Made by a program: the position numbers and the translations under genes. The notes under the pieces were generated by a model. The model was not told where the DNA came from. It saw nothing but the letters and a program-made list of their open reading frames with translations, and made no database searches. Below are positions 14,756 through 37,726 of a stretch of DNA of 37,726 bases, piece after piece. The first letter of the stretch is position 1. Each line of letters opens with the position of its first letter. This DNA comes from a virus. Taxonomy: Duplodnaviria > Heunggongvirae > Uroviricota > Caudoviricetes. Where the stretch lies: the IMG/VR virus record IMGVR_UViG_3300025093_000001; one strand, 5' to 3'.

Positions 14756-15695
14756 CCACAATTTGATTTCAGTTGATACAATTATCTCTAAACTATTTAG
14801 AGAGAATATCATTGGTCCTGAATATAATGAATCCGATGTTATTGAAATGATAGGGGAAGCCCTAGCAGCCATTGGAGCATTTAAACAGTTTGAGGAGAAG
14901 GTAGAGTTTCTAGAGATTAAAGACCATAAGGCATTACTTCCAGAGGGAATGCAGGAGATTGTTATGGCAGCTTATTCTCTTAGCACAGATGTGAGCACAG
15001 ATGATTGCACTACTTCATGTGGTGTAGATGATACATGCTTAGGTGCATGTGATGAAGAAGACCCAGATGAATGTTGGAGTTCTCATAACAGATATTATAT
15101 CCCTGAGCAGAGGTATTATGATGTTGTGAAGGATTACCAAACAATCTACAGCAAGTTCACAAAAGACTTCTATCGTAACTTCTTACCACTGAGATTGGCA
15201 GCAAGTCCATTCAGTGTGACCAATATGATGCATTGTGAAAACTGTATCAATATGGTTTATCCAAGTGAGTATGAATATAGCATTAGGAATGGAATGATTT
15301 ATACTTCGTTCCAAGAGGGTAATGTATGCCTCGCCTATCTAAGCATGCCACTTGATGATAATGGCTACCCTATGATACCAGACCTATTTGAGTATCAGGA
15401 AGCTATTACTGCATATATTATGATGAAGGATGCTAAGTCTCGTTACTACAACGAGCCATCCGCAGCTTATAGAGCTTTGTACAGAGAGCTAACTAGAGAT
15501 TGGCATTGGTATGTACGAGCAGCTAAGAATAGACAAATGATGCCTAGCAATATTGACGAGAGGGAAAGATTGTATAGAGGTAATATGAAGCTAATAAAAC
15601 AACATAGAGGTTATACTAACTTCTTTGGCAACTTAAATGACTTAGATAGATTTAATTTACATGGCGGAACGACAAGAAAGAGATACAGGTATTAA
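14748..15695 (+). CDS. Tail tubular (ring; P22 gp4-like) protein (315 aa)
   Basis: ISVDTIISKL...DVIEMIGEAL..IG and Y.I.NG.I.TSF.EG.V.LAY...PLDDNGYPMIPD...EAI..YI, typical of crAss tubular/ring proteins; supported by synteny. Confidence 0.7.
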   Translation: MANHNLISVDTIISKLFRENIIGPEYNESDVIEMIGEALAAIGAFKQFEEKVEFLEIKDHKALLPEGMQEIVMAAYSLSTDVSTDDCTTSCGVDDTCLGACDEEDPDECWSSHNRYYIPEQRYYDVVKDYQTIYSKFTKDFYRNFLPLRLAASPFSVTNMMHCENCINMVYPSEYEYSIRNGMIYTSFQEGNVCLAYLSMPLDDNGYPMIPDLFEYQEAITAYIMMKDAKSRYYNEPSAAYRALYRELTRDWHWYVRAAKNRQMMPSNIDERERLYRGNMKLIKQHRGYTNFFGNLNDLDRFNLHGGTTRKRYRY

Positions 15696-20073: not shown

Positions 20074-20075
20074 TT

Positions 20076-21893
20076 ATGAAATCTAAAGAAATAAAGATAA
20101 CACCTAAATATGCACTAGGAGGAGCTCTCTCAGGGGGGCTTTCTGGTTTACAGGCTGGTGCTAAGTTGGGCCCTTGGGGAATGTTAGGAGGAGCACTATT
20201 AGGTGGTGTTGCTGGACATTTTATTGAGGAAGATACACAAGCTAAGGCTGAACAAGAGAAGGCTAGTATGGCATCTCTTAATAATTCAGGTTTTACTAAC
20301 ATGAATCCTGGCGGAGTTAGTGGAGTCATCACCTTTGAAGATGGTGGACTTTCAGTTACTAATCCTCTTATAAATGTAGAGGAGGGTGAGTTGATGGTAG
20401 ATAGAGCATCTGGAGAAATCATTGAGGAGTATTCAAAGGATAGGGGATTTAAACGTCACTCTAAAACTGAATCTCCTAATAACTTTGTACAGGCTCGTGA
20501 GAATGGAGTAGTAATTCCAAGACGTATGGCTGCTGAGTATAAGATGAATAAGAATCTTAGATATGGCTTCCTTAGAGATGTACTAAACAAACAAGCCGAC
20601 AGAATGATGTATGGTGTGGATGCAGATGGTAACCACGTTGAGTTTTCTAAAATTCAGCAAGATGCTAAGAGAATGTCTCAAGGTGGCTTTGCTAAGAGAT
20701 ATGGTAATGGTGGAGGGGAGCCAACGCTGGCTGAATTAAAAGCTTATCGTGCTGCTGCAGTAAAGGCAGGTAGAGTAGACACTGTAGGAAATAGAGAAAC
20801 CTTTTTTAATAATATTAGTGATGAAGATTTTCGAGAGAAAGTACGTTTTTATGCAGATATGAAACCAGCTGCTAGAGAGGCAGCTGCACAGGATTTGTAT
20901 CGGGAAATATTAAAACAAGAGGGTAGGACATCTTTAGAGCCATTAAAATTTGCTAGAGACCAGGTGGGAAACACTTTAAAAGATTGGACTAATCAAATTT
21001 TTGCAACTTCATTTGAAGATGGTGGAACAGTTCCTGAGGAACCAGTCATCCAAATTGACCCAGATGAAACAATGTTACCAGCTGCTTGGGAATTTCAACG
21101 TCAGTGGGGAGAAGGTCTTACACCTATGGGCTTAGAGGGTATTCCTAATACTCTCTCTACTGTTGACCCTATAGCGTCTGGACAGGCAGAATTACCTGGC
21201 AATCTATTGACACAAGATAGTTTTGTAGATGGTGTAGGTAAGTTCACTAGACCTGATAATCCACTATGGACTACAGGAAATACTATTGGTGCTATTGGTA
21301 CTGGTATTTCTGCATTGGGCCCACTGTTTACTACAATGTACAGTGGTATTGACAGAGATGAGCAGAATACATACAAAGGAGTAAGCCGTCGTGCTGAGGG
21401 TGAAGTTGCAGATGTATTCAAGGGTGTACAAGAAGAAGGGTTGCGAGATATCAATATGGGAGCTAATGTAGCTACTGAGATGAATAGAATTAGAACTACT
21501 GATTTCTCATCTATGTTAGCTAACCAACAAAATATTAATAGACAGAAGAATCGTAGTGTATCCTCTTTCTTAAATGATGTGGCATCCTCAAGAGCTAAGC
21601 TTATGGCAGACTTAATGTTTAAAGGCGATATGGCTGAGGCTCAGGCAGAAGAGAAAAGGTTGACTAACTTAGATATGAATAGAGACAATTACTTTAGTAA
21701 CATCTCTAGCAACTTATCTAACTTAGGTGTTAACATGCAAGGATTTGGAAGAAACCTTAACATGCATACACGCAACCAAACTCAATTGAATATCCTTAAA
21801 CAAATGTCACCAGACTTTGATATTGATGCACAAGGTAATATTACTTTCAAGGGTAAGCCTTTGGGAGTTGATGTAAATGGAAAAAGAGTATGA
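20076..21893 (+). CDS. Internal virion cargo / ejection protein 1 (605 aa)
   Basis: Gly-rich hydrophobic N-terminus (GGALSGGLSG...GALLGGVAG), NVEEGEL motif, repeated xxxGG motifs, Q/N-rich helical C-terminus and no Cys. Follows the muzzle gene as in crAss-like phages. Confidence 0.65.
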   Translation: MKSKEIKITPKYALGGALSGGLSGLQAGAKLGPWGMLGGALLGGVAGHFIEEDTQAKAEQEKASMASLNNSGFTNMNPGGVSGVITFEDGGLSVTNPLINVEEGELMVDRASGEIIEEYSKDRGFKRHSKTESPNNFVQARENGVVIPRRMAAEYKMNKNLRYGFLRDVLNKQADRMMYGVDADGNHVEFSKIQQDAKRMSQGGFAKRYGNGGGEPTLAELKAYRAAAVKAGRVDTVGNRETFFNNISDEDFREKVRFYADMKPAAREAAAQDLYREILKQEGRTSLEPLKFARDQVGNTLKDWTNQIFATSFEDGGTVPEEPVIQIDPDETMLPAAWEFQRQWGEGLTPMGLEGIPNTLSTVDPIASGQAELPGNLLTQDSFVDGVGKFTRPDNPLWTTGNTIGAIGTGISALGPLFTTMYSGIDRDEQNTYKGVSRRAEGEVADVFKGVQEEGLRDINMGANVATEMNRIRTTDFSSMLANQQNINRQKNRSVSSFLNDVASSRAKLMADLMFKGDMAEAQAEEKRLTNLDMNRDNYFSNISSNLSNLGVNMQGFGRNLNMHTRNQTQLNILKQMSPDFDIDAQGNITFKGKPLGVDVNGKRV

Positions 21894-23869
21894 GTAGATT
21901 CTATAAAACCAGTGGAAGTAACCCAATAGATTGGGCTTACCAACTTCCTTATCAGGAGATGTTGCAGGGACTTATGTCCAAGCAAGGTGCTCAAGACAGA
22001 ATGATTGCTGCTACAGGTCAGATAGAATCTCTTGGGCAGAAGTTAAGATTTTTGAATGCAGATAGGACTGAGGCTATGCGTCAGATGGAATGGTTGGATA
22101 GTAATGTTCAACAGTTCACTGGTATGGATTTAACTGACCCAACTAATAGAGCTAAGCTTCGTGGCTTTGCTAGAGAGGCAGCTAGACGTTGGGGACCAAG
22201 TGGTATTGCAGGAAAAATCAGTTCTAACTTTGCTTCATTCCAAGCTTATCAAGATGCCCTATCAAAAGACTCTAATATCTCACAATTTAGACGTAGAAGA
22301 GCTATCGAAAAATCTCTTAAGGATTATAAGGGTGTAGGAAGCTCTGACCCGTATGGTGGAGAATATAAAAGTTTCTCGGGCTTTACTCCAACTAAAGATT
22401 TTGCGTATCAAGATGAGTGGCTTAAGATTGCTTCTAAAGTAAAAGGTGATAAGATTACTAAGAAGTGGGCTGAAAGTAATGGTATGTACATTGACAACTG
22501 GGAGGAGATGAAAACTATGAACACTGAGCAGAAAATGGCTGCCATGTTCCAAGCATTCCAGAATAGACCAGATGTTAGAAATGCAATTCAAGAAGATGTA
22601 TATTTAGGAGTAATGGAAAAAGATTCTGTTCCACAATTCCTGACTCAATTGTATCAATCTGGAATGTCTACTCAAGCTTTGGATTCTGAGACTGGATTTT
22701 CACGAAGAGCTGATAGTTGGAAAATTGCACAGTGGAAGAGAAAGCAAGAACAGGCTAATATTTATGACCCGTATACTCTAAGTCAAGTTGATGCTGTTGC
22801 TGCAGCAGGACGTGGTGAAGGTATAGATATCTCTACTGATAAGCCAGGTACTTGGACAGGTGGTGGTAAGGTAGCAGCTACAGACCTTATTCTGACTGGT
22901 AGAACTATTCCTATTGATTATACTAAGTTTAAGAACTTAAGCCCAGCAGCTAAGCAGGTATTGAAGTTACAATGGGAAAATAAAGATATATTAGAGAGTA
23001 ATCCTAACTCAAAAGAGTCCTTAATGATTAAGGAGCAAATTGCAGACTTAACATCTAAGTTTGAAGCTGATGATACTATTTACTTAAAGAGGGCAGGTAG
23101 AAAACTTAACAAGATGTTTACCCAACTTCAGGCTATTCAACTTGACCATGCAGGTACTGTAGAGGCAGAAGCCCTAAGAGATTTAATAGCAAGACCTGGA
23201 GAGAAGGGTTATGATATGTATGTAACTGGAAGTTTCCGTACAGGTAAGACTAAGATTGATAATATCAAAACTTTACAGAGGGACTTTAAAGAATATACAG
23301 GTACTAATGTAATTAGTAAAAATGAAGATGGTACTTACTCTATTTTAGGAGGTATTAGACATACACCTGGTCATGTAGCTCAAGGAGCTGTAAATACGGG
23401 TAGGGGTGTTAAGATGACTCAAGACCATATTGATAATTATACAAATACTTCTGAAGCAATGCTTATACTAGATGAAGATGCATTAGAACAAAAACAGTAT
23501 ATGGACAAGTATTACTCCAATCCAGCGGGAGATGCATTTATTCTTCCTGACCAAGAGGGAGAAGGTGTAAGATTTGGATTGGCTGGTGAGAAGAGTATTC
23601 AAGAAGATTCAGATGCTTGGGACAGAAAAGCAGCTTGGGAAAGAATGATTCAATCAGAGGTTGACCTCCCAGCAGAACAAAGAAAGAATTTCAATCAAGC
23701 CACTATAGATGTTTATAATGAGGCAAATAGACTAGCTAATTATATTGACTATGAACTTACAGACTGGTTCTCTGGTCCATTAGATAGAGAAGTAAAAGCA
23801 AAAGCAAAAGCAGAAAGAATTTCTAATAACCCTGTTAACCCAGGAGGATTAACTTGGGGATTCCAATAG
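21890..23869 (+). CDS. Internal virion cargo / ejection protein 2 (659 aa)
   Basis: N-terminal RFYK...YQLPYQEM...KQ..QD helical region, no Cys, located between cargo 1 and the RNAP gene. Confidence 0.6.
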   Translation: MSRFYKTSGSNPIDWAYQLPYQEMLQGLMSKQGAQDRMIAATGQIESLGQKLRFLNADRTEAMRQMEWLDSNVQQFTGMDLTDPTNRAKLRGFAREAARRWGPSGIAGKISSNFASFQAYQDALSKDSNISQFRRRRAIEKSLKDYKGVGSSDPYGGEYKSFSGFTPTKDFAYQDEWLKIASKVKGDKITKKWAESNGMYIDNWEEMKTMNTEQKMAAMFQAFQNRPDVRNAIQEDVYLGVMEKDSVPQFLTQLYQSGMSTQALDSETGFSRRADSWKIAQWKRKQEQANIYDPYTLSQVDAVAAAGRGEGIDISTDKPGTWTGGGKVAATDLILTGRTIPIDYTKFKNLSPAAKQVLKLQWENKDILESNPNSKESLMIKEQIADLTSKFEADDTIYLKRAGRKLNKMFTQLQAIQLDHAGTVEAEALRDLIARPGEKGYDMYVTGSFRTGKTKIDNIKTLQRDFKEYTGTNVISKNEDGTYSILGGIRHTPGHVAQGAVNTGRGVKMTQDHIDNYTNTSEAMLILDEDALEQKQYMDKYYSNPAGDAFILPDQEGEGVRFGLAGEKSIQEDSDAWDRKAAWERMIQSEVDLPAEQRKNFNQATIDVYNEANRLANYIDYELTDWFSGPLDREVKAKAKAERISNNPVNPGGLTWGFQ

Positions 23870-23876
23870 AATAAAT

Positions 23877-26800
23877 ATGGCAGAAGATAAAACATTTAGT
23901 GTAGAAGACTTTGCAAGTCAAGGTGTAGGATTTACTCCTACTCCTAAAGTGCAACTATCGCAACAAATCCTAGCTCCACATAGAAAGAGGCAAGCTGTTG
24001 CATCTAATTTTTCAAGTCCTGGTAGGTCATATTTAGATATGACTTTTGAGCCTACTGAGGAAGGAAATGCTTGGTGGCAAAATGAATTTGATGCAGCTAA
24101 TCAGAATTGGTTAGAATCTTGGGGAGTTGGCTTAACTAAATTTGTAGGAAAGACTGGACTATATACAATAGGTAATATAGGTGGACTTGCTGTGGCTTTA
24201 CTTAAGACTCCAGGTGCTATCGCCAATGGTGATTTTACAAGATTATTCAATAACGAATTTTCTACAGCTATGATGAATGCTGAAGAGTGGTTGGATGAAA
24301 ACCTAAAGAGTTATTATAGTCAAGCAGAGCAGGACGCTAACTTTTGGAAAAGTATGGGTCAGGCTAATTTCTGGGCTAATGATGTTCTTGGTGGCATGGC
24401 ATTTACAGTCTCTGCTGTATTATCAGCATATCTTACTGGTGGTGGGGGATTAGCCTCTGCTGCTGCAAGAGGTTCTATGCTCTCAAGAATGCTTAAAGGT
24501 GCATCTGTTGTAACTAAAGGTATTTCTAAAACTCCATGGAAACAAGGTCTTACTCAAGCATCTAAGCTATTAGGTAAAAGCTTTGGACAAACAGCTAAAC
24601 AAGCTGCTATGGGTACAAAGAACTTTATGGTAGGTGCTTGGTATGAGGCAGGTGTTGAAGCAAATCATTTCATTAAGGATACTGAAGACAAGTACAAAAA
24701 TAAATTCATTGAAGAGTATACTAAAACTAATGGACAAACTCCTTCATCACAAGAGGTAGTAGATTATTTAGCTACTAAGAAGTCTACTATTAATCGAGCT
24801 GCTAATGCTTTATTTGTTGGTAACCTTGCTCTTGTAGGTGGTGTAAATATGATTACACTTCCTTCTATATTTGGTAGAGGACTATTTAAAGCTTCTAATC
24901 CTTATGCTCATCTAGCTAAAGGTGCAAATAAACCTGTTGACTGGTTCAAAAGAGTAGCTGGTGACCTAGGTGCTAAGAAGATAAGTAAGGATGCTGCAAC
25001 TGGTGCATGGAAGATGGCATTTGACCGTTGGGGAAGTACTACAGGAGGTAAGCTCCTAAGAGGTACTTATTATACATCTAAACTACTTAGAAACCCATTA
25101 TATGAAGGTTTCGTAGAAGAAGGTGGCCAAGGCTTGATGTCTAGAGCTGCATTCAACTATGTAGCAGGACAGTATAACCCAGAAGGTACGCATAACCAAT
25201 ACACAATGATGAACTCATTAGGTGATGCTTTTGATGATACTTATGGTACATTCGGTACTGACGAGAATCCAGAGTTCTGGAAGGAAGTTGGTATTGGTGT
25301 AATCATTGGTGCTTTAGGTGCTCCTACATTCAGAGGAGCTAATCCATTCAAGGATGGTAACTGGCAGGGTGGTGCTTATGGTAAATACCGTGAGACTCGT
25401 AGGGATTTAGCTGCTGCTAGAGAAATGATAGATGAAATAAATGCTGGTAACGTAGCTCCTGCATTTAAGAAGGCTGTTAAGGCAAGTAACTCTATCTACA
25501 CAAGTAGCCAAAGAAAGCAGGAAGGTATTGCTGATACTGACTTCTTTACAGCTAAGAGAGCTGAATCTGCTGAACTATTTGGTGCAGTTAAAATGCATCA
25601 TGACCTTGGTATCACAGAATACTTAGAAGAAGACTTCGCAAAAGAAGTTGAAGAAATGCCACTTGATGCTTTCAGAGAATCATTTGGTTATGAGAATATG
25701 AAGGATGAAGAGCTTGAGGCTCGTAAGAAAGAAGTTGTTGATGCTTTTAGAAGAAAGGTAGAGATGACTACTAACGCTATTAACAAGGCTCAAGAAATTA
25801 TCCGTAACAGAAAATTAGTAGGGGAAGATGAGAATGGTAACATTGATGAAATGCTCAATGAAGACCTAACAACTGCTTTAGCTTACAACATCCATTTAGG
25901 TTATGACCTGGATGCTACTGAGAAGAAGTTGTTTGAGACTTTATCTGAGATGACAGGGATGGACCCAAGAACTCTTCGCCAAGCTCGTAATGCTAATCTT
26001 AGAATTCCTTTCAATAAGAGTCAAATTAGTAAGGTACAAAAGGAACTTAAAAAGTACCAACGTTACCTTGATATGTCCAAGAAGGAAGAGAAGATTGGTA
26101 AATGGTCAAGTAGAAAAGAAACTGCTGAAGATGTAATTGCAAATCTTGAAGATAGAATCAAGGCAATTATTCGTGAAGAAGAAGAAACTCGTAAGGCTGT
26201 TAAGTTAGAATACAATGGTGATATTGACGCATTGTATGAAGATTTAATGGCTTCATTTGAAGCGAGAAAGCAGTTTGAAGAGGTATATGAAGAATTACCT
26301 TACGACAAAGATGCTATCACTAATACATTCAATGACCTGCACAAGATTGCAGAGCAAAGAAGATTAGCTGTCCAAGAATTTGATGCACTCTCTTCAAGAG
26401 AAGGTGCAGTTCTGTTTGGAGAAGATGTAGCTACTGTACGAGCTGATATGGAACGTATCACTAAAGAAACTCTTATCAAGAGATGGAGACAAGACTTAAT
26501 CCAGATTGGACTCAAGACTGGTAACCAAAATCTTGTAGAGTCTGTACAAGCTGATGAGACTTCTGAACAATTAGGTGAGTTCAAGAGAATGCCTGATACT
26601 GACGATGCAGAGTTCAATGGCTTTAAGAATGAGTTCTCTGATTTGGTTGAAGATGTTAGAGAGAAGCTGAAGAATCCAGATGGATATTCACCAGAAACTC
26701 TAACTAATGCTATCTCTACATTAACTAAATACAAAGAGGCTGCAGAAGCTATGGCAGAAGAGGCTGCTAATCCAGAAGTTAAAGGATTGTACACTGAGCT

Positions 26801-29800
26801 TCAAGAGCAAATTGATGAAGAGTTAGATATATTAAAAGAACTTAATAAGGCTAACAAGCGTTACGAGACTCATGGTACTGAGCCTATTCTAGATAAAGCA
26901 ACCAGTTTAATTCGTATTACCCTTCCTCAGGATGAAGAGGAAAGAGCACAGGCTCTTGAGGTATTGGATAAAGCTGATGCAGATTCCCTAAAAGCTTTCT
27001 TATCTATTCGTAAAGTAGAATATGATAAAGGAGGTACTCCCGTAAAACCTAAGAATAAGAGAGGTGTTGAGATTACTGATACACCAATCACAATTATGAG
27101 AGGTAACCCTAAGGTTGCAGGGGAGGGGTATGCCTTATTTTATGGTGATGTTAAGATTGGTGGAATTACACACCCTGATAAATTTCATTATGAAGGTAGA
27201 CCACTAAACCCAGAGGTTGCTAATGAGCTTCTGGCATTGGGATTACCTGTAGGTGAGCATGAACTGTTTAAGCAATTCCATGCAGCTACTACTGCTCTTT
27301 TCCAAGAGGTAGATAATAAAGGTAGTGTTGGTGGTAAAAAGATTGCTGAAACTCTTTACTTGCGTAAGGGTGCTCCTGGATTCCAAATGATTTCTAATCA
27401 AGATATTAGACCTTTGGTAGGTGACCTATTTACTCAAAACCCTGAGTATCTTGTAGAGATGGGTGGTAAGAAAGGATTATTCATAGTAAGAGACCAAGAG
27501 ATGTTCTTGGTAGAACCTACTGGAGAGGTGACACAACTTGAGTCTGAGGAAGCTATTAACTTTAGAGCAAAAGGTATTAAAGACTCATTCAAAAGTCCTG
27601 CATCTTTTGCAAACCTTCGACATCAATATGTACTGGTTGCACCAGTTGGAGATAGAAACCAAATCTTAGGTCTTGATTATCCACAAGCTAACTCATATAC
27701 AGAAGAGCAGTTTAAAGCAGAACTAGAGGATAAAGTATTTGCGTTTGATAAGGTTTCAAATGAAGACCTTGTTAAAGAAGCTAAAGATAAAAAGATAGTT
27801 AGTAGAGAAATTGAGATGTTCGTGACTTTGGGTAACTCTGAGAGAGCCACATCTAAGGTGTCTGTATTCGTAACTATTGCGAGAAGAAGAACTACTGAAG
27901 ACCCTAATAAGTTTACTAGAGCATTTGTTAACATTAGATTCAAGCCAACAGAGCCTGGGTCTTGGGGTGTTAACTGGAATGTAATCAAAAGAAATGAAGA
28001 TAATGACGGTCTCTTAGTAACTTACTATCAAGATAATAAAAAGGTAGAAGAACCTTTAACTAAGGATAGCCTTATTAGAGCTCTTAATAGAAGAATGCTT
28101 TCATTCCACAATAAGAAAAAGAAAGAAGAGCATGAAGAATATTTAGATACTCTATTGAGTGATTCTGATGGTAACTTGGCTGCAAGAGTAGCTGATGTTA
28201 AGACACGAGTTGAGACTGATACACTTAGAGATTTAGAATTAGCTGCAACTCCTAGAGCTGCTTCTGGAACAGATTATTACATGTACCCTAGAAAGGCTGT
28301 ATTTGAAAAAGCAGTAAAGGTAGCTAAGAAAGAAGATGCTCCAGTAGTATCTCCAACTACATCTAATCCAATCAATACAGCTAGTCCTGAGTTGAGAGTG
28401 GTTGATAATCCTGAAGTTAAAGGTGGGAAAGAAATCTTTATTAGAGCTGGATTTGATGCACAGAAGGGTGAGGAAAGTTGGTTATCTGTAAGTAGCTGGC
28501 AACAAGAACTTGATGGTGCATTAGCTGCAGGTATAGTTAAAGATATTGATGCTGCAAGAGTACATCCAAGATTGGGACAATACTATGCTCAATTTGGTTT
28601 ATCTATTAGTGATACGGGTAAAATCTATCTTCCCGAAGTTAAGACTGAGGAGAAACCAGCAGTAGCTGATGATGAAGCTTCTACGGAAGTTGCTTCTCCT
28701 GATGAAGTAGAAACTCCTAAAACTGATGCAGAACGTCTTAAAGAAATGGAAGAGGCTGCTCAGGAAGATACTAATGCGGAAGAACAAGAAGAAGAGGATG
28801 ATGATAATCCATACTTCTCAAGAACCTCTTATGACAATACTTCTAAGTTGACTTATGCTGAGGCTTTGAAACTGTTGAAGAGTATTCTTCCTATTCAATC
28901 AGATGAGAATCCTAATGGACTTATCTCACTTAAGGAAATTGCAGGTCTAGAGAATAGACTTAAAGCTAATGGTACTACCTTTGGTGCATTTAGAGATAAT
29001 ATTATCTACCTAGAAAAGAATAAAGCAAATAGAGGTATTGTATTCCACGAAGCTTTCCATGCTGTATTCAGGTCTCTACTTTCTCCAAGTGAGAGAGCAG
29101 CTATCTATGCAGAAGCTATGGAAGAGTTCGGAGTTCCATCTAAAGAAGATTTAGATAAACTGAGAGATACTCACCCAAGCTATTTGAATATGTCTGGTGT
29201 TGAGGTAGCTAACCTATGGTATGAAGAAAAGCTTGCAGATAAATTTGCAAACTATGCAGCACCAAAGAAAGCTGCAACTACTGCAATAGGAAGATTCTTC
29301 CAAAGAATCTGGAACTGGATTACTTCATTCAGAGGTACTTCCAGAGCTCCATTCCAACAACTATTTGATAACATTTTATCTGGACAATATGTTAAGCCTA
29401 GCTCTATCTATAATAATGATAGTAGCGTAGCTATGATTATGTTGCCTAGAAAGAAACGTATTAATGAGAATGTAAAGAATCCTAGACTTAACAGGATTCA
29501 GTCTGAACGTATTATCTCTAGAGTAGCACATGATGTCTATGATAAGGTAGCAGAGTCTGGAACTCTTATTGGTATTTCCGAGGTGATTAATGCTGCTATG
29601 GATAACATTGCAGACTTCTATAGTGTAGCTAACTGGGAGACTGAAAGACTTCAAAAACTGAAGAATACTAATGTGGAATTAACGCAAAGGTTCACTAATG
29701 ACCTTGCTGATATGAGTTCTGCACTTAAGCATAAAGAGTCAAGAAAAATTATTCGTAGAGAGGTTGCTAACCTTATCTCTATGATTGATACTGAGCTTGA

Positions 29801-32800
29801 ACTTTATGATGAAGTAGAAGATGCGGATAATCCAGAGAGAAGTTTTGACAAGTACATTGGTCAAGATGGTGGATTCAGCTCTCTTACTAAAGAGATGAAA
29901 GCATTCCTATTATTGTCTACTGTACAATCAGATGAGTTCGGAGTAGGACTGTCAGAGGATGCTTTAGCTGACCCTAAATATACTGTACCTGTTAATGTAT
30001 TTAATACTTACTACAATATTCAAAAAGGATTAGTAGGAGCTTCTGCAGCAAATATGTTGCCAAGATTAAAGGAACTTGCAGTATATGACAAGGAACTTCA
30101 GTCTGTGTATGATAGAATGATGATTCGTATCAAGGCTGATTTAAATGAGCAAGATACTGCTAACGATGATTTGACATTCTCTCGTATTAAGAGAAGTAAC
30201 TTCTTTAATCTATTCAACAGTAACTTCAATAACACAAGACTGTCTATTGATGATACTCTGTTTGACGTAGGTACTAAGAAGTATAAAGTAGTAGCAGCTA
30301 ATCAAAGAAATGCTGCTGAGACTCAAGTAAATGCTTGGGCACAAAGATATGAAAGGATTCTAACCTATAAGAATCCATTTGATATTGCTGAAACTATTAC
30401 TAGCCTGAAGCCAAAGTATATTTTAGAGGATAATGCAGAGTCTAGAGATTTACTATTCTCTGAAGAGAAACTTCAAGCAAGACTTTCATACATAAAGAGT
30501 GAGCTCTTTAATGAGCTTGGTATGGACTTACATATCAATTATATTAAGTGGAGTTTCTTAAATGATAACTTGGCACTTCTTAATAATGCTAGATTAGAGT
30601 TTGAAGAGGAAGAAGGATTCCATCCAAATGAGGCTAAAGCTCAGGAACTCTTAGACTTCCATGCACTCTTTGCTGAGTCTGGTGTTAACTCTCTTAATGA
30701 GAAAATTCAATCTGCTGCGGATAAAAAAGCCAAGAAGGCAGGTAAGGGTCTTCTATTTGACCTATTACCTACAACTAACATCCTGAGACATGTTAGGGCT
30801 AACAATAGAAACCCTTATGGATTAACTGATTTTGAAATTAGTCAGAATACACAAGGTAAGATTGTTCGTTCAGGTGGTGAGGGTGCAGTAACTAGAATGA
30901 AGTTTATTGCTGCATCTAACGCAATATTTGATACTTCTGTTAGACCTACTTCTCATCAAAATGCTGAGGGTAAGACTATTACAGATGTAACTAAGTATTC
31001 ATTCTACTCTAGAATGTTGGACATAATGAAGTCTAAACCTTTTGTAGAGTATCTGAATAATATAAACAGTGATGATGTAACTTGGGAGACTCTGAGAACT
31101 TTATTGAGGGAGAACTTCAATATTAGTTATCCTGACCATTTTATAAGAACATGGCATAACTCGTTGAAATCTAACCCATTAGTTACTCGTAATATCATCG
31201 AAGATATCTTTAATTCTACCACTGTAATTAAAACATTAGGTGGTATGAGAGAGGTTAGCATTCGAGAAGATGATAGTATTAATACTAACAAGGACTACCG
31301 TGATGGTAAGACTTGGAAACACTTGGACATCAGGTCTAAGATTATAAACTCACTTATTAACTTTGTAGACGAGAAGTCTGGGACTGATAATCCTATGTAC
31401 TATAGTATGTTCACTATTAACAGTGACAAGTCTACAGTATACTCTAAACTACTTCCTAAGAAGAGCTACGTTACTAGTAAAGGCTTAACTGCTGAAGCTA
31501 GAGAAACTCTCTTTGAATTGTTTGAAACAGACTACAATAGGGTAAGTGCTGAGTATCAGAATATTGAAAAAGTTAAAGCTGGTGAGATTGATAGGTTGGA
31601 AGGATATAACCACGATGCAGCTACTGGAAGTTTTGAAACTTATCTTGATAAAGATGGTCAGGAACAACCATTAAGAGCATTTGAATTTAATACTTTCATA
31701 TGGTTAAAAGATACTAATCCTGGACTTTACAATACACTTATTGAAAATGCTAAGGTAGGTAAGAAGATAACTAAAGAGCTTAAGGATAATATTAAAGACC
31801 AATTTGAAGAGTTCTTAAATACTCAGGCTCAAGAGATGTTAAACTTACTACAGAGTCCAGCTTTTGAGGTTATCAAAAAGAATAAGAAGGATGAGTATGT
31901 GAATAGACTTCTCCCTAATGACTTTGTTGATACTGGTGTTGTTAATGAGTTAATGCTTCATAACTTCTTGGTAAATGATTACATCAACTCTATTGCTTTC
32001 AACAATATGTTGGATGGTGATAGCTTTATGGGCACTAAGAACTGGATTGACTTTATCAACAGAAATGCTGGTAAGAATGCTTACGGTGCTAGTCTGGGTG
32101 AAGGTCAATCTAAAATTGCTATTATCAAGGCATTTAATGATGAGAGAATCCCTGGTATTGATTGGGCAGACGCACAGTCATATAGTACAGAGGGATGGAT
32201 GATGAATACTTACCTTAGAAAATTAGGTAAGCTTCCTAGAAATGTAGAGAGAGTGTGGCAACAGAAGAGAATGGGTAAAGAGCTTAGTAGCTCCGACCTC
32301 AGTATCCTTCGTCACCATAAGGCAATGTCTCAATCTAAAAAGCTTGTAGCTAAAGATGGTTACTTATATTGGAAAACTTCGGTAGCTGAAATTGAAAGAG
32401 GTGGTGTATCTTATATTGACCCACAGGATGAGGCAGCTAAAGATAAGCTGTATCAACAACTCTTCAAAGCTGAGACTGACCTTATCTATGCTGAGACTGA
32501 TAAAGCTAAGCAAAAGGCTCTTAATAAGATTGATACGTTATATATAGGCATCCATAAGTTGTGGAAACCTTATCCACATAAGGAAGTACTGCATAATCTT
32601 CTGAATCAAATGGAGAGAAAGGGCATTGACCTTATAGCATTTGATAGTGCTATGAAGACTAATAAGCCTAACGTATCTAATGTTCAGACTGATGGTTCTG
32701 TTGACCTTATAGCTAATGATATTAACAATGAGTTTATCAGAGAGCAGGTTATTACTTCTGGATTCAAGAATAAAATTGTACACGGTACTCAGCTAATTCA

Positions 32801-35800
32801 ACTTATCTGGTCAGAGCATGACCCAGAGACTGAAGTACAAATTGGTGATAAAGTTTACAAGCTTGGTTACTTAAGAGACCTGTATCAAAATAAAATTGCG
32901 GACAGAACTCAGAGAGGTAGAACTCGTCTGGAGAAAATTCTATTTACAAATAGAGATGGTCAGCAAACACTTAAGCCACAATATAAAGAACTGTATGAGT
33001 CATTTGTACGTTCTATTGAGAAGTCAAATCCTGACCCATACTTAGTAGAAATGTTTGCTACTGACCTGCAAAGTAGTCCTGTATATAACCCTAACTTCAG
33101 TGGTGTATCTCAGAAGTTCTACCAAATGTTCTTAGCATTTGCATCTGCAGATGTTCTGAAGCATAAGGTAAATGGTGTTAAGTACACATTACAATCAGAC
33201 TATGGACATAAGGTTCTTGTTGATACTGAAGGTAATGTAGTCATGACTAAGGACTTTGACGCTAGTAAAAAATATGGCGAGCCAAGACACCTAGCATACG
33301 ATGAAAGTACTGGAGAAGCTGAAGCTATCATTTCAGGAAATGTGGCTAGTCTATACAAACTACAGAAAGGTCAAACTATTCCAAAGGATTTAGCCAAGCA
33401 GTTAGGATTCCGTATCCCTACTCAAGATAAGCACTCAATGATTAAGTTGAAGGTAGTAGATATTCTACCTCCATCAACTATGAATACTATCATTGTACAT
33501 CCTAAAGTAATTGAACTGTCTGGAGCTGACTTTGATATTGACTCCCTGTTTGTAAGAACTTACTCTGTTACGGGTAAAGCTCGCTATGGTAATTATCTGC
33601 AAGTAGGAAGTATTGATAGAGCTATCCAAGAACTACGAGCTAGTAGAGATAACTCTAAAGATTTCAGTGAGTTCTTAAAGAGAGCTAAGTCTGAAATTGC
33701 ATTTGATGCAGAGGCTCAGTTCGAAGCTATGAAGGCTAGTGGTGAAAGTAATCTGGAAGCATTGCAGTCTGGATTCACTAACACTGATAGAAAGAATAAG
33801 CTTAAAGAGTTGATTGACAACTACTATAAAACTAAAGGTTTATCATCTGATATCGCAGAGTTTAAGAAATCAAATTCTGCTCTGCATGACCAAATCTTAG
33901 CTAACATTGCAGCTTACAAAGAGGGTAGATTAGGAGATATAGTTCCACTTACTACAGAGGAATTAGATAACTCTATCTTAGACCTTGAGTATGAGATGGT
34001 TAACACAGGTAGTACTGGTAATAAGACTATTGCAGAGACTCCAATGACAATGGATGTTATTGAGAATGTCCTTGATACTTGGAAGGGTATGGGTCTTGAT
34101 TACTCTGTATCTGTAAAAGCTCCACACACTTTCTTATCTAAGATACAATCTATTCTTGCAAATGATGCTGGTAATGCTGGTATTGGTCCAGTTGCCCTGT
34201 CTAACGTTGCAGTACAAAACTTATTGGCTAAGGGGGCGAAACTTCTCCATGATGTAAGTATCTTAGGTGAAAAAGCATTTGATGATTTTGGAGAAGGTTT
34301 GAATAGAGTAAATAACATTATCTCTACTATCCTATCTGCAATGACTGATAACAATAAACACTTATTCTCTTCTCAGCTTAATTTGAATATGGATACAGTA
34401 GGTATTGCAGCAACTATAGCTGGTCTAGGTGTTAAACCTGACAAACTGTTTGCTACATTTAGACAACCTGCTATCACAGTATTTGCAAATCTTCTTGATA
34501 GAAAACGAGCAGCTATTAAGTTAGGTACAGAGAGAAGTGAGATTAATGGATTGCTGAGTGACCTGGATAGTATGATTGAATATACATTCGACAAGCTTGG
34601 ATTGTCAGATGTAAATATGGATGTAGTAAGTGACCTTAATGTACCTTTAACTGTAGAGAACCTACATGAAGGTATGAAGTATGAGAAAGGTCTGAACTCT
34701 TCTTTATCAAGAGAACAATATGCACGACTGCAAATGAATGCTCTTGGAGAAATTTACAATGCAAAGAAAGTTGCGGATGAAATTAGAAACTACACTCGTC
34801 TGTTGTCACTTATCAAGGGACTTGAGGGTAGCCCAACACAGCTTGATAGACTAGAGGATAGCTTGATTGAGTTAGGTATCAAGATTAAAGAATCTGATGG
34901 AAAGGTAACCTTTACTAAAATTAAAGGTGCTGATACCTACTTAGATTGGGAAGACATTCTGTTGTCAGAAGATTCTAACCCATATGTTATAGAGAACATT
35001 AAGACTGCTATGTTGCTTAAGAAGCACTTAGGTAAGTTCTTGATTCCATTCTCTGATAAGGGATACTCTCTATTAAACACTGTTAAGAAAAATGCTAACC
35101 CAAGAAGATTCTATGATGAAGGTAGATTCAGCAAACTTCTTCGTAGTGTATCTGCTTACCTACTTATTAAGAAGGATAAGCAAAGAAGAGAGCCTGGATT
35201 CTATAGTCCAGATATTGTATTCAAACCTGATTTGATTATTCAACATAGAGAACTTATGAAAGAGGTTGAGGATAGAACCTCACCACTATATAACAACAAG
35301 TTCCTATTGGCACTTAGAGAAAACATCTATGAAAGCAAGTTCCATAATAAGTGGGTGTTTGGACTTACAGTAAATACTCGTAAGATTACAGACCCTGACC
35401 TGAGAACAAAAATATTAAATGACTCAGGAATCTTGTTTGAGAACAAAAAATATCGTAAATTTGCAAAAGACTTAGTTAAATCACTTGTAGTATCTGATGC
35501 ATTGATGTATAAAAATGGTTCTTATCTTACCAACTTAGACCCAACATTCTTGAGTCAACTAATTGGACAGTTAGATGGAGTGCAAGATGCATTCAATTCT
35601 GGTTCAATAGAAAAGATTTCTCAGGAAATGGGTATGGATTGGAATGAAATGAGAAAAGAATTAACTGAACTCTTCTTATATGATTCATCTAACTTTACTG
35701 AAAGAAGGATAGCTAAGAGTAGAATTGTAACTATATTGAATAAAGTTACTAGAGGTATCATGGCAGAGCATAAGGGTGTAAGTCCAGAGGCTATAGCTTC

Positions 35801-36539
35801 ACTTAAAAGTGAAGAAGCCAGAGAGTACAGACCTGTATGGCATGATAGAAAAGAGAAGACTCTTCATATATCCTTGAGAAAAGGATTCAATACTAAAGCT
35901 AAGGATTATGCTCCTGAATTTGCGTATATGAGAGAAATGGCTGATAAGCTGGCATCCTCTTCTAGCCTATTTGTAAAAGGAAGTTACGTTTGGAAAGAAG
36001 CTACAGAGAAAGAGGAAGCTAAGACTACAACATCATTAGGATTCCCTCTAATGTTCAACTTTATCATTAGGTCAACTGATGATAGTGGTCAAACTGTAGA
36101 GAGAAATGCTTTGTATAAACTAACTAAGATTAATAGAAATCCATTTAAGGATGAGTGGACTGAGCCATTCTTTGAGAATGATTCAAACTATGTGAATGCG
36201 TTAGATGCTGTTTATGAGGAAGTTCCTGAGATTAATTCATCTGCATTCTCAATGCTTGGAATGTCTGTTGAAGAGGTTCAAGAATACTCTAAGAGGGAAG
36301 CTACTGAAGAGAAGTTAGCACCTAAGAAGGAAGAAATTTCTGTAGGTAGAAAGCTAACTGCTGAAGAGCAAAATGCATTAGACAATGCACATATTATGGA
36401 TGCAGCTTCAGAAGCTAGAGCTAAAGAAAACTCTCACCTAAAACATATCACTAATGAGTTTGGAGTTATGATTAAGAATCCACATTATGCTCCAGAAGGG
36501 AAAAAACCTATTCAGGATAAAAATAAAGACAATTGCTAA
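23877..36539 (+). CDS. Giant virion-packaged RNA polymerase polyprotein (4220 aa): membrane/ejection region, zincin metallopeptidase and double-psi beta-barrel RNAP
   Basis: Catalytic GADFDIDS (DFDID at 33528-33542, aa 3218), GFRIPTQ (33411), DAQSY (32169), FDSAMK and SAMTDNNK are crAss-RNAP-like motifs. HEAFH at 29046-29060 has a downstream EEKLAD. Gly/Ala-rich hydrophobic segments lie at 24156-25326. Confidence 0.9.
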   Translation: MAEDKTFSVEDFASQGVGFTPTPKVQLSQQILAPHRKRQAVASNFSSPGRSYLDMTFEPTEEGNAWWQNEFDAANQNWLESWGVGLTKFVGKTGLYTIGNIGGLAVALLKTPGAIANGDFTRLFNNEFSTAMMNAEEWLDENLKSYYSQAEQDANFWKSMGQANFWANDVLGGMAFTVSAVLSAYLTGGGGLASAAARGSMLSRMLKGASVVTKGISKTPWKQGLTQASKLLGKSFGQTAKQAAMGTKNFMVGAWYEAGVEANHFIKDTEDKYKNKFIEEYTKTNGQTPSSQEVVDYLATKKSTINRAANALFVGNLALVGGVNMITLPSIFGRGLFKASNPYAHLAKGANKPVDWFKRVAGDLGAKKISKDAATGAWKMAFDRWGSTTGGKLLRGTYYTSKLLRNPLYEGFVEEGGQGLMSRAAFNYVAGQYNPEGTHNQYTMMNSLGDAFDDTYGTFGTDENPEFWKEVGIGVIIGALGAPTFRGANPFKDGNWQGGAYGKYRETRRDLAAAREMIDEINAGNVAPAFKKAVKASNSIYTSSQRKQEGIADTDFFTAKRAESAELFGAVKMHHDLGITEYLEEDFAKEVEEMPLDAFRESFGYENMKDEELEARKKEVVDAFRRKVEMTTNAINKAQEIIRNRKLVGEDENGNIDEMLNEDLTTALAYNIHLGYDLDATEKKLFETLSEMTGMDPRTLRQARNANLRIPFNKSQISKVQKELKKYQRYLDMSKKEEKIGKWSSRKETAEDVIANLEDRIKAIIREEEETRKAVKLEYNGDIDALYEDLMASFEARKQFEEVYEELPYDKDAITNTFNDLHKIAEQRRLAVQEFDALSSREGAVLFGEDVATVRADMERITKETLIKRWRQDLIQIGLKTGNQNLVESVQADETSEQLGEFKRMPDTDDAEFNGFKNEFSDLVEDVREKLKNPDGYSPETLTNAISTLTKYKEAAEAMAEEAANPEVKGLYTELQEQIDEELDILKELNKANKRYETHGTEPILDKATSLIRITLPQDEEERAQALEVLDKADADSLKAFLSIRKVEYDKGGTPVKPKNKRGVEITDTPITIMRGNPKVAGEGYALFYGDVKIGGITHPDKFHYEGRPLNPEVANELLALGLPVGEHELFKQFHAATTALFQEVDNKGSVGGKKIAETLYLRKGAPGFQMISNQDIRPLVGDLFTQNPEYLVEMGGKKGLFIVRDQEMFLVEPTGEVTQLESEEAINFRAKGIKDSFKSPASFANLRHQYVLVAPVGDRNQILGLDYPQANSYTEEQFKAELEDKVFAFDKVSNEDLVKEAKDKKIVSREIEMFVTLGNSERATSKVSVFVTIARRRTTEDPNKFTRAFVNIRFKPTEPGSWGVNWNVIKRNEDNDGLLVTYYQDNKKVEEPLTKDSLIRALNRRMLSFHNKKKKEEHEEYLDTLLSDSDGNLAARVADVKTRVETDTLRDLELAATPRAASGTDYYMYPRKAVFEKAVKVAKKEDAPVVSPTTSNPINTASPELRVVDNPEVKGGKEIFIRAGFDAQKGEESWLSVSSWQQELDGALAAGIVKDIDAARVHPRLGQYYAQFGLSISDTGKIYLPEVKTEEKPAVADDEASTEVASPDEVETPKTDAERLKEMEEAAQEDTNAEEQEEEDDDNPYFSRTSYDNTSKLTYAEALKLLKSILPIQSDENPNGLISLKEIAGLENRLKANGTTFGAFRDNIIYLEKNKANRGIVFHEAFHAVFRSLLSPSERAAIYAEAMEEFGVPSKEDLDKLRDTHPSYLNMSGVEVANLWYEEKLADKFANYAAPKKAATTAIGRFFQRIWNWITSFRGTSRAPFQQLFDNILSGQYVKPSSIYNNDSSVAMIMLPRKKRINENVKNPRLNRIQSERIISRVAHDVYDKVAESGTLIGISEVINAAMDNIADFYSVANWETERLQKLKNTNVELTQRFTNDLADMSSALKHKESRKIIRREVANLISMIDTELELYDEVEDADNPERSFDKYIGQDGGFSSLTKEMKAFLLLSTVQSDEFGVGLSEDALADPKYTVPVNVFNTYYNIQKGLVGASAANMLPRLKELAVYDKELQSVYDRMMIRIKADLNEQDTANDDLTFSRIKRSNFFNLFNSNFNNTRLSIDDTLFDVGTKKYKVVAANQRNAAETQVNAWAQRYERILTYKNPFDIAETITSLKPKYILEDNAESRDLLFSEEKLQARLSYIKSELFNELGMDLHINYIKWSFLNDNLALLNNARLEFEEEEGFHPNEAKAQELLDFHALFAESGVNSLNEKIQSAADKKAKKAGKGLLFDLLPTTNILRHVRANNRNPYGLTDFEISQNTQGKIVRSGGEGAVTRMKFIAASNAIFDTSVRPTSHQNAEGKTITDVTKYSFYSRMLDIMKSKPFVEYLNNINSDDVTWETLRTLLRENFNISYPDHFIRTWHNSLKSNPLVTRNIIEDIFNSTTVIKTLGGMREVSIREDDSINTNKDYRDGKTWKHLDIRSKIINSLINFVDEKSGTDNPMYYSMFTINSDKSTVYSKLLPKKSYVTSKGLTAEARETLFELFETDYNRVSAEYQNIEKVKAGEIDRLEGYNHDAATGSFETYLDKDGQEQPLRAFEFNTFIWLKDTNPGLYNTLIENAKVGKKITKELKDNIKDQFEEFLNTQAQEMLNLLQSPAFEVIKKNKKDEYVNRLLPNDFVDTGVVNELMLHNFLVNDYINSIAFNNMLDGDSFMGTKNWIDFINRNAGKNAYGASLGEGQSKIAIIKAFNDERIPGIDWADAQSYSTEGWMMNTYLRKLGKLPRNVERVWQQKRMGKELSSSDLSILRHHKAMSQSKKLVAKDGYLYWKTSVAEIERGGVSYIDPQDEAAKDKLYQQLFKAETDLIYAETDKAKQKALNKIDTLYIGIHKLWKPYPHKEVLHNLLNQMERKGIDLIAFDSAMKTNKPNVSNVQTDGSVDLIANDINNEFIREQVITSGFKNKIVHGTQLIQLIWSEHDPETEVQIGDKVYKLGYLRDLYQNKIADRTQRGRTRLEKILFTNRDGQQTLKPQYKELYESFVRSIEKSNPDPYLVEMFATDLQSSPVYNPNFSGVSQKFYQMFLAFASADVLKHKVNGVKYTLQSDYGHKVLVDTEGNVVMTKDFDASKKYGEPRHLAYDESTGEAEAIISGNVASLYKLQKGQTIPKDLAKQLGFRIPTQDKHSMIKLKVVDILPPSTMNTIIVHPKVIELSGADFDIDSLFVRTYSVTGKARYGNYLQVGSIDRAIQELRASRDNSKDFSEFLKRAKSEIAFDAEAQFEAMKASGESNLEALQSGFTNTDRKNKLKELIDNYYKTKGLSSDIAEFKKSNSALHDQILANIAAYKEGRLGDIVPLTTEELDNSILDLEYEMVNTGSTGNKTIAETPMTMDVIENVLDTWKGMGLDYSVSVKAPHTFLSKIQSILANDAGNAGIGPVALSNVAVQNLLAKGAKLLHDVSILGEKAFDDFGEGLNRVNNIISTILSAMTDNNKHLFSSQLNLNMDTVGIAATIAGLGVKPDKLFATFRQPAITVFANLLDRKRAAIKLGTERSEINGLLSDLDSMIEYTFDKLGLSDVNMDVVSDLNVPLTVENLHEGMKYEKGLNSSLSREQYARLQMNALGEIYNAKKVADEIRNYTRLLSLIKGLEGSPTQLDRLEDSLIELGIKIKESDGKVTFTKIKGADTYLDWEDILLSEDSNPYVIENIKTAMLLKKHLGKFLIPFSDKGYSLLNTVKKNANPRRFYDEGRFSKLLRSVSAYLLIKKDKQRREPGFYSPDIVFKPDLIIQHRELMKEVEDRTSPLYNNKFLLALRENIYESKFHNKWVFGLTVNTRKITDPDLRTKILNDSGILFENKKYRKFAKDLVKSLVVSDALMYKNGSYLTNLDPTFLSQLIGQLDGVQDAFNSGSIEKISQEMGMDWNEMRKELTELFLYDSSNFTERRIAKSRIVTILNKVTRGIMAEHKGVSPEAIASLKSEEAREYRPVWHDRKEKTLHISLRKGFNTKAKDYAPEFAYMREMADKLASSSSLFVKGSYVWKEATEKEEAKTTTSLGFPLMFNFIIRSTDDSGQTVERNALYKLTKINRNPFKDEWTEPFFENDSNYVNALDAVYEEVPEINSSAFSMLGMSVEEVQEYSKREATEEKLAPKKEEISVGRKLTAEEQNALDNAHIMDAASEARAKENSHLKHITNEFGVMIKNPHYAPEGKKPIQDKNKDNC

Positions 36540-37123
36540 TGAAGTGTAGATTAGATGTAAGGGCTGATATTGCTGACCAAGTTCGAGAGGATTTGGGAGC
36601 AACTGGACGTGTCATTGATAATGGTACTCCTACATTTGAATTAAATCATTTGGGGAGAACTGATTACAAGAACACTATACAAGCCGTAGCTAAAATTAAT
36701 GAAGAGTATGGGTCAAAGGTTGTTAAGTTGACTAATGACCCACCATTAGCCACTATTGAGATTCCAGACAATCTAGTTGAGGAATATTATCAAGCTGGTG
36801 TACTTCAGGAATTTGGTGGTAAGAGTGTAAGTGATGAAGCTCTTGAGGAACAAGAAGAAAAAGATTATCAGGATTGGGAAAGTACTACTGAGTTTAAAGG
36901 CAGAGTAGCATCAGGTAATGTTACTGATACTCTTAAGAATATTGAGGGTCAAAGATTCCATACAAGAAGTGCTGTATTAGCCTATTTAAAAGCAGCTAGT
37001 AATCCCTATTTCTATAAGTTAGTGCAGAAGACTGATGCAGAGGGGTCTTACTGGAACGCTATACTTAATCCTAGATATGAACGTTTCATTGATGAAATAA
37101 ACAAATACGAAAGTTGTAGTTAA
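36539..37123 (+). CDS. Small cargo-region protein (194 aa, MKCRLD...YESCS)
   Basis: The TAATG overlap at 36537-36541 favours the ATG at 36539 over the TTG at 36533. Function unknown. Confidence 0.7.
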   Translation: MKCRLDVRADIADQVREDLGATGRVIDNGTPTFELNHLGRTDYKNTIQAVAKINEEYGSKVVKLTNDPPLATIEIPDNLVEEYYQAGVLQEFGGKSVSDEALEEQEEKDYQDWESTTEFKGRVASGNVTDTLKNIEGQRFHTRSAVLAYLKAASNPYFYKLVQKTDAEGSYWNAILNPRYERFIDEINKYESCS

Positions 37124-37125
37124 TT

Positions 37126-37726
37126 ATGAGTTGTAGAGTAGATTTCGAAGAATTTAAAGCTAAGGTAGGTGAAGAACCAGTAAGGTTTGAGCTTGACCAA
37201 AAGAAGCAGGATTTGTTTGATAAGCAAATCCCTAATGGTGCTCCAAGAGTTCAGAAAGAACTAGCGGATACTCTTATTCGTGAGCACTCTAAATATAAAG
37301 CCATTGTAGGTAACTACTATGTAGATGCTGCAGGTAAAGAATATTTAAGAACCACTAACTTCATTAAGAAGTTGAGAGATGGTTATTTCGCATTTCAGTC
37401 TAATGATGAGAGTAGATATGAAATAAATAGAGAGCTTGGTAATACTACTGATATTGTATTGGAAGGAGCCATCCTTGGTAAGAGTTTACCTGACATCTAT
37501 CAAGATGTTAAGAGATTGAGAAATGGTATTTCCATTTCAGAAAAAGCTGTTAATGAGCTTGTAACAGAGATTAATAAATACAAGGTGATATACCCTGGTG
37601 CTGTATTCTTACCACAGATTACTTTAGGCACTGGCTTTGGTGTAGCGGGTACACTTGACCTTTTGATTATTGAATCAGATGGTACAATGCACATTATTGA
37701 TTTAAAAACTTCAGTTAATCCTGTTA
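37126..37726 (+). CDS. Probable large cargo protein with N-terminal PD-(D/E)XK (RecB/Cas4-like) nuclease domain, 3'-truncated; not in ORF track
   Basis: TAATTATG start. The frame is open for 200 codons to the window end: MSCRVDFEEF...VAGTLDLLIIESDGTMHIIDLKTS (37648-37710 matches G.xD......IIDxKT). Confidence 0.8.
   Translation, partial: MSCRVDFEEFKAKVGEEPVRFELDQKKQDLFDKQIPNGAPRVQKELADTLIREHSKYKAIVGNYYVDAAGKEYLRTTNFIKKLRDGYFAFQSNDESRYEINRELGNTTDIVLEGAILGKSLPDIYQDVKRLRNGISISEKAVNELVTEINKYKVIYPGAVFLPQITLGTGFGVAGTLDLLIIESDGTMHIIDLKTSVNPV

Follow-up and report, generated by a model that had tools for sequence, protein, structure and literature searches.

The cargo (ejection) proteins encoded by a 37,726-nucleotide (nt) stretch of viral DNA (Duplodnaviria; Heunggongvirae; Uroviricota; Caudoviricetes; IMG/VR virus record IMGVR_UViG_3300025093_000001) were found to be nearly devoid of cysteine (Cys), with the few that remain placed at the ends by which three successive gene products face one another, namely, a giant virion RNA polymerase (RNAP) fusion protein of 4220 amino acids (aa), a 194-aa protein and a nuclease-bearing protein of 1359 aa. 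The same rule was kept in homologous modules of other crAss-like phages and followed the way in which these modules are divided into separate proteins, which suggests, as read from the sequences, an undescribed end-to-end tie by which the products would be joined into one injectable thread. The stretch, called the window below and meant in its whole length, is the late/cargo block of an uncultured crAss-like phage, for which no close relative was found among deposited phage genomes. The features concerned are as follows.

20076..21893, plus strand: 605-aa cargo protein, the first of two after the muzzle-like gene (crAss001 gp45 position), without Cys; PHROG 15413, E 2e-10.
21890..23869, plus strand: 659-aa cargo protein (crAss001 gp46 position), without Cys.
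23877..36539, plus strand: 4220-aa fusion of a gp67/gp47-like part with a gp66/gp50-like virion RNAP (BLASTP); the sole Cys is the last residue.
36534..36536, plus strand: TGC codon that encodes Cys 4220, the C-terminal residue of the polymerase fusion; the TAA stop and the next ATG overlap (TAATG).
36539..37123, plus strand: 194-aa "linker" protein; the sole Cys are residue 3 (36545-36547) and residue 193 (37115-37117).
37126..37726, plus strand: first 200 residues of the 1359-aa gp65/gp49 homologue; the sole Cys is residue 3 (37132-37134), and the gene runs beyond the window.

To express the depletion quantitatively, we compared the Cys content of the five consecutive proteins (605 + 659 + 4220 + 194 + 1359 aa) with that of the remaining open reading frames (ORFs) of the same window by translation, taking the full length of the 1359-aa protein, the gene of which leaves the window after 200 residues, from the 102-kilobase parent contig L001. 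The five proteins held 4 Cys in 7,037 residues (0.057%) and the remaining ORFs 64 in 6,516 (0.98%), so that about 69 would be expected in the cargo at the background rate (P of four or fewer, ~1e-24), and the probability that four randomly placed Cys would all lie within three residues of the four junction-facing ends was ~5e-12. Such suppression of Cys relative to the proteome background is of the type seen in N4-like phages (Schitoviridae). An earlier note on this DNA had located one Cys at the last residue of the 4220-aa protein (ending ..KDNC), two in the 194-aa protein, at residue 3 (MKCRLD..) and second to last (..YESCS), and one at the start of the nuclease protein (MSCRVD..), with none elsewhere in the 200 visible residues of the latter or in the 605-aa and 659-aa proteins; translation agreed in each case, and Cys 3 proved to be the sole Cys of the full 1359 aa. 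Its further claim that Cys is purged from the cargo is upheld by the depletion found here, although such a purge had already been published for N4-like phages (PMC11445570).

The identity of the proteins was established by comparison with phi14:2 and crAss001. In the 4220-aa protein, BLASTP located gp67/gp47-like regions at residues ~9-660 and 1664-1761 and a gp66/gp50-like region at ~2912-3547; the N-terminal part matched phi14:2 gp67 (E 7e-12) and crAss001 gp47 (E 2e-18), and residues 3076-3547 and 2912-3310 matched phi14:2 gp66 (PDB 6VR4; E 1.6e-13) and crAss001 gp50 (E 1.3e-15), respectively. The "RNAP polyprotein" of the earlier note therefore does contain a polymerase but is, more precisely, a gp67/gp47-like part fused to the gp66/gp50-like polymerase. 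Its "nuclease protein" is a distant homologue of phi14:2 g065 and crAss001 gp49 (tblastn, E 3e-11 to 3e-27); its N-terminal region has a PD-(D/E)XK nuclease domain at residues 139-286 (Pfam PF12705, E 2.9e-5, over the curated cut-off), and phi14:2 gp65 is annotated as an RNA polymerase associated protein. For the 605-aa protein, direct homology to crAss001 gp45/gp46 was not detected; its positional equivalents in Fpv2, cr50_1, cr55_1 and crAss001 (gp46) are also without Cys. The start of the 194-aa protein at ATG 36539, in place of the TTG 36533 used by the automated ORF call, is backed by all its homologues. The five proteins are probably packed into the virion and injected, as indicated by the homologues of the polymerase module in phi14:2 and crAss001, which were shown by mass spectrometry to be packaged in the virion (annotation for phi14:2; PMC10172136). 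A weak Pfam match of residues 2795-2917 of the polymerase fusion to an RlmJ-type rRNA methyltransferase (PF04378, E 7e-4, 19.4 bits with a cut-off of 27) is probably a chance one.

The conservation of the terminal Cys was examined in phi14:2, crAss001, IAS virus, Fpv2, Suoliviridae, Intestiviridae, Azobacteroides phage and 80 IMG/VR loci. Across these relatives, the distant ones of which are 21-29% identical, the rule was kept throughout with the partial exception of cr273_1, so that the conservation in Crassvirales on which the earlier note had made its idea depend is present in the homologous modules. The positions found are listed below, with negative numbers counted from the C-terminus.

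phi14:2: g068, no Cys; g067 (1797 aa), last residue only; g066 (2180 aa), Cys 3 and -2; g065 (1421 aa), Cys 3 only.
crAss001: gp46, no Cys; gp47 (2341 aa), -3 only; gp50, Cys 5, -9 and one internal; gp49, Cys 5 only.
80 IMG/VR loci: gp65-like proteins, Cys 3 or 5; gp66-like, 3-5 and -1 to -10; gp67-like, -2 to -4.
Fpv2 (Flavobacterium phage): gp33 (4401 aa), -2 only; gp34, Cys 3.
Suoliviridae cr50_1, cr55_1 and cr60_1, and Azobacteroides phage: giant protein, Cys -1 to -4; next protein, Cys 3 or 5.
Intestiviridae Rudgehvirus, cr3_1, cr8_1 and Carjivirus: upstream zincin-annotated protein, Cys -1 or -2; giant protein starting MxC or MANNC.
IAS virus: terminal Cys retained; more internal Cys.

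The Cys stand within recognizable junction motifs, [DE]-x-C-x before the stop at the C-terminus and M-x(1-2)-C-x-[LIV]-[DE] at the N-terminus, which are near-identical at both junctions of one phage. In Carjivirus (L087, CrAssphage C0531BW4, MW067003; 17631-17700), the coding sequence of the 4091-aa RNAP has an annotated start that is not ATG and reads ILLYISHR..., and an in-frame ATG 21 codons downstream gives MSCGNIK.., the start that the terminal-Cys rule predicts. In cr273_1 (L105, NC_055904), the late genes are TAG-recoded, and the giant protein (5248-22632) has 36 in-frame TAG codons in 5794 aa; its last Cys, at -50, stands ahead of a low-complexity tail, and a further 13 Cys are internal.

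The terminal Cys also vary with the architecture of the module. Four layouts, in which the parts are named after phi14:2 gp67, gp66 and gp65, were distinguished by domain mapping.

67, 66 and 65 separate: Steigviridae; two junctions, four terminal Cys.
67 fused to 66, then 65: Suoliviridae, Fpv2, L007 and L009; one junction, two terminal Cys.
67, then 66 fused to 65: Intestiviridae, with the gp65/gp49-like region fused to the C-terminus of the giant protein (phmmer); one junction, two Cys.
67 fused to 66, a middle protein, then 65: the window clade and L008; two junctions, four terminal Cys.

In all four, the number of terminal Cys was twice the number of junctions: a pair was present wherever the products separate and none at the fusion points, which is the covariation that the earlier note had envisaged between adjacent genes. 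Furthermore, no terminal Cys was ever found at the outer ends of the module, where the first protein begins and the last one stops. A permuted gene order in Intestiviridae was ruled out, because phmmer showed a gp66-like plus gp65-like fusion in which the order is conserved and the fusion point differs.

Breaks at the DNA level provided a further comparison. In gp50-like genes broken by LAGLIDADG/HNH endonuclease genes and a group I intron, there was no Cys at the break, and four loci that had appeared to be exceptions (L014, L026, L044 and L050) were set aside, their "splits" being introns or homing endonucleases (Rfam RF00028 in L044). A gp47-like gene that appears as two products of 1620 and 616 aa, neither of which bears a Cys where they adjoin (L041:12075-18991, minus strand), was likewise set aside as a frameshift in a colinear gene, located by blastx at reference residue 1774, which could be either an assembly error or a real or programmed frameshift. 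In cr116_1 (L107, NC_055882), a group I intron with an endonuclease gene, recognized by two partial matches to Rfam RF00028, lies at 20042-20884 between the annotated gp51 and gp49, which are, from their sequences, probably exons of one spliced polymerase-module protein; the C-terminus of the presumed spliced protein (..KKLC) faces gp48 (MAKNSC..). These breaks, which exist only in the DNA and carry no Cys, thus serve as negative controls for a rule that concerns junctions between proteins.

To characterize the middle protein of the window, we searched for its relatives. Searches of the phage collection and of IMG/VR gave no close relatives, a word-index search returned only the 194-aa protein itself, and an exhaustive HMMER search yielded six true homologues of 166-334 aa, which are 24-42% identical to it. 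All six have Cys solely at residue 3 or 4 and at -2, and two of the seven invariant columns in the seven-row alignment are the terminal Cys. In every contig that shows the neighbours, the gene order is the same, with a giant ORF that ends in ..[DE]xC(x), its Cys at -1 to -3, then the linker, and then a protein of ~1375 aa with its sole Cys at 3 or 4. The possibility that the 194-aa protein is a piece split off from a neighbour was rejected, as BLASTP and phmmer showed no similarity to the polymerase C-termini or the gp65-like N-termini of relatives. An AF2 model of this protein had a predicted local distance difference test score (pLDDT) of 48 from the single sequence and 76 with the seven-row alignment; the latter model predicts two small domains (1-92 and 130-190) separated by a disordered spacer of variable length, with both Cys placed just beyond the first and last helices, and a Foldseek search with it gave no significant match in PDB or BFVD. 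At L008:6669-7706, the corresponding position is taken by a 345-aa protein that has no detectable similarity to the 194-aa family and whose Cys are solely at 4 and -2. That two unrelated inserted proteins obey the rule is strong evidence that it is functional and modular, and the 194-aa family adds to the indications that extra proteins can plug into the chain.

The proposal of the earlier note, that a disulfide or metal clasp between facing ends would string the polymerase, the linker and the nuclease protein together for co-packaging or ordered ejection, is supported in that each check on sequences that it had suggested came out in its favour, including the retention of exactly the two terminal Cys in the distant homologues of the linker; the physical link and its part in ordered ejection stay presumptive. 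Taken together, it is quite probable that the facing Cys interact across each junction by some chemistry. As to which chemistry, we favour, with modest confidence and on the basis of the sequences, head-to-tail disulfides that would stitch the separate products into a threadable pseudo-polyprotein to be reduced in the host cytoplasm. In the virion, the C-terminal Cys of one product would be joined by a disulfide to the N-terminal Cys of the product that follows, so that the polymerase fusion, the linker and the 1359-aa protein would make up one unbranched chain of ~5,770 residues, which would stay linear because the bonds lie at the very chain ends. Such a chain would thread the narrow tail channel unfolded or partly unfolded, each protein pulling the next through with a 1:1:1 stoichiometry maintained, and the reducing cytoplasm of the host would then cleave the bonds and free the subunits. 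Internal Cys would be selected against, both for the branches and wrong links that they could form and as a liability in the periplasm, the latter as argued for N4-like phages. Two reported properties of crAss001 are consistent with this scheme: its virions have disulfides between subunits of the tail barrel, of the fibre hubs and of the portal vertex, and there is the proposed partial unfolding of gp46, gp47, gp49 and gp50 at tail constrictions of <50 Å (PMC10172136).

Several points weigh against the disulfide chain. The bond itself is deduced from sequence, and virions assemble in a reducing cytoplasm and inhabit an anoxic gut, which calls thiol oxidation into question. As the motifs at the two junctions are near-identical, the sequence does not dictate pairing in gene order, and a cyclised middle protein with a direct link between the two outer proteins is equally possible. 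The purge of internal Cys is not absolute, since IAS virus and several Intestiviridae hold several of them, and in cr273_1, the sole partial exception found, internal Cys are many and the last Cys of all stands 50 residues short of the C-terminus. Furthermore, Drobysheva et al. (10.1101/2020.03.07.982082) assume that the fusions are cut into their component proteins, in which case a permanent linkage would be dispensable for function. A complex prediction, made without alignments for the 194-aa protein together with its two neighbours (the last 349 aa of the polymerase and the first 350 aa of the 1359-aa protein), gave a score of 0.02 with low pLDDT, values that favour neither binding nor its absence.

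Another way of joining the ends would be a metal ion (Zn, Cu(I) or an Fe-S centre) bridging the terminal Cys across the junctions, which would let go in the host when ligands are exchanged or the redox state changes. This would account for the same conservation and covariation, the acidic residue near the C-terminal Cys ([DE]-x-C) could add ligands, and such a clasp, more easily than a disulfide, could be made while virions assemble in the reducing cytoplasm. We nevertheless consider it unlikely, because each end offers only one Cys, no conserved His stands beside it, and the layouts with a single junction (Fpv2, cr3_1 and Rudgehvirus) fall short of a tetrahedral Cys4 site, with two thiols in total. 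The zinc clasps and hooks that are known, as in CD4-Lck and Rad50, draw two Cys in a CxxC or CxC from each partner, whereas a single Cys is found per terminus here.

It is also conceivable that the terminal Cys tether each cargo protein to the portal, tail barrel or inner capsid, or homodimerise, and thereby position or hold the cargo until ejection. The tail and portal-vertex proteins of crAss001 bear Cys with many inter-subunit disulfides, the tail-region proteins of the window are rich in Cys, and some Intestiviridae cargo-region proteins, such as the 1304-aa protein of Carjivirus, have a single Cys at the C-terminus for which no N-terminal partner is obvious. We give this explanation little weight, since it leaves three features unexplained: the restriction of Cys to the C-terminus in the first protein and to the N-terminus in the last, the loss of both Cys exactly at fusions, and the constant presence of one at each end of inserted middle proteins.

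The least probable explanation, already disfavoured and to our minds very improbable, is that the Cys have no linking role and reflect N-terminal processing or stability, redox sensing by each protein, or a by-product of translational coupling or a nucleotide signal. The junctions of the window are tightly coupled (the TAATG overlap followed by a 2-nt gap), and 12 nt, TGTAGANTAGAT, are common to the two N-termini and occur nowhere else in the window. Against this, the terminal Cys are kept where gp47 is encoded on the strand opposite to gp50/gp49, as in crAss001 and most IMG/VR loci, where a GIY-YIG gene sits between the partner genes, as in L008, and where an intergenic spacer of ~130 nt separates them, as in Carjivirus; TGT and TGC codons alternate, and in the linker family the Cys stay invariant while their flanks drift to 24-42% identity. 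A signal at the nucleotide level was therefore ruled out, as the rule outlasts strand inversion, inserted genes, spacers and synonymous codon changes, and the signal is, as judged from these comparisons, one of the protein and not of the DNA. A role within each protein would, moreover, predict no loss of both Cys upon fusion. Two other known classes were excluded: split inteins or trans-splicing, because the Cys lie 1-3 residues from the ends with no room for intein fragments and Pfam found no intein domain in the 194-aa, 4220-aa or 1359-aa protein, and lipoprotein N-terminal Cys, because the Cys at residues 3-5 comes right after the start Met with no hydrophobic signal peptide.

Some observations were made beside these results. 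Upstream of the cargo block, the window encodes Cys-rich proteins, which may hold Zn sites or structural disulfides by analogy with those of the crAss001 tail.

10656-11240: 11 Cys in 194 aa, with CxxC spacing.
13612-14367: 10 Cys in 251 aa.
14748-15695: 8 Cys in 315 aa.
15661-20073: 1470-aa muzzle-like protein with 15 Cys, matching the Fpv2 virion structural protein gp30 and PHROG 15100.

In L008, the GIY-YIG homing-endonuclease gene (7758-8351) follows the 345-aa gene ahead of the gp65-like gene. In Intestiviridae, proteins encoded upstream of the Cys-free cargo genes (L087 5213-9127, L094 5276-6175 and L092 6490-8763) have a lone near-C-terminal Cys without an evident N-terminal partner, in the context ..QSCQ at the end of the 1304-aa protein of Carjivirus and, in cr3_1 and Rudgehvirus, in a C-G-G that precedes a basic tail. 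The same family has one or two thioredoxin-like proteins encoded a few kilobases downstream of the RNAP module on the opposite strand (L087 32090-32368 and 33088-33357; L106 29659-29928; L092 31780-32055), which may be relevant to thiol/disulfide handling.

These findings bear on the biology of crassviruses, the most abundant human gut phages, for which the packaging and injection of the ~0.7 MDa of polymerase-associated protein and the activation of the autoinhibited virion polymerase are stated as open questions in papers from 2020-2026. The rule provides a concrete and cheaply testable hypothesis, to which the cultured phi14:2 and crAss001 are suited, and it explains how fusions and splits of the module genes could interchange freely in evolution. 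It is also of use as a check on gene models, having exposed a mis-annotated start and helped to recognize two separately annotated genes as the probable exons of a single gene interrupted by an intron. More tentatively, and in our view less likely than not, the termini could act as a general, modular terminal-cysteine coupler, in which an M-x-C N-terminus and a [DE]-x-C C-terminus would be enough to splice any protein by disulfides into the ejected chain; this chain would enter the host as a single thread, and reduction would both free the subunits and switch on the autoinhibited polymerase. If this is the case, the 194-aa and 345-aa middle proteins, which are unrelated, would be instances of it, and the coupler would represent a post-translational, redox-gated stand-in for a polyprotein, with a natural handle by which foreign cargo could be loaded into virions.

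With respect to known systems, the statement of the earlier note that nothing of this kind had been described holds for the terminal Cys pairs, of which no mention was found in the phi14:2 polymerase preprint, the crAss001 atlas, the DEV paper, the 2026 N4 paper or full-text searches, but not for the Cys purge, which is known from N4-like phages. New with the window are the linker family, the convergent middle protein of L008, the table of four architectures, and the intron and frameshift controls. Among the closest counterparts is the Crassvirales RNAP module (phi14:2 gp67-gp66-gp65 and crAss001 gp47-gp50-gp49), which consists of homologous proteins, obeys the same terminal-Cys rule and, like that of the window, follows a muzzle gene and two small cargo genes. 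The window differs in that its gp67- and gp66-type parts are fused into 4220 aa and an extra 194-aa protein precedes the gp65 homologue.

In N4-like phages (N4 gp50; DEV gp71, gp72 and gp73), a giant virion RNAP and co-ejected proteins are similarly near-devoid of Cys, and this suppression is conserved and has been explained by passage through the periplasm (PMC11445570). The N4-like polymerase is, however, one polypeptide that retains no Cys, whereas the module of the window is made of several polypeptides with one Cys per facing end, and the polymerases of N4 and crAss-like phages are structurally distinct according to the 2026 N4 paper. The disulfides of the crAss001 tail connect structural proteins, whereas the proposed links would connect cargo proteins. 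In A-B toxins, a disulfide joins two chains that cross a membrane unfolded, and reduction in the target cytosol frees the active chain; the two chains arise from the nicking of one polypeptide, and the bond is not end to end. The likeness to the module of the window is thus a functional analogy without homology, since here separately encoded proteins would join head to tail. Finally, in some crAss-like phages, all three proteins are fused into one polyprotein (10.1101/2020.03.07.982082), in which peptide bonds give the same linear connectivity, so that the proposed disulfides would sit exactly where other lineages fuse.

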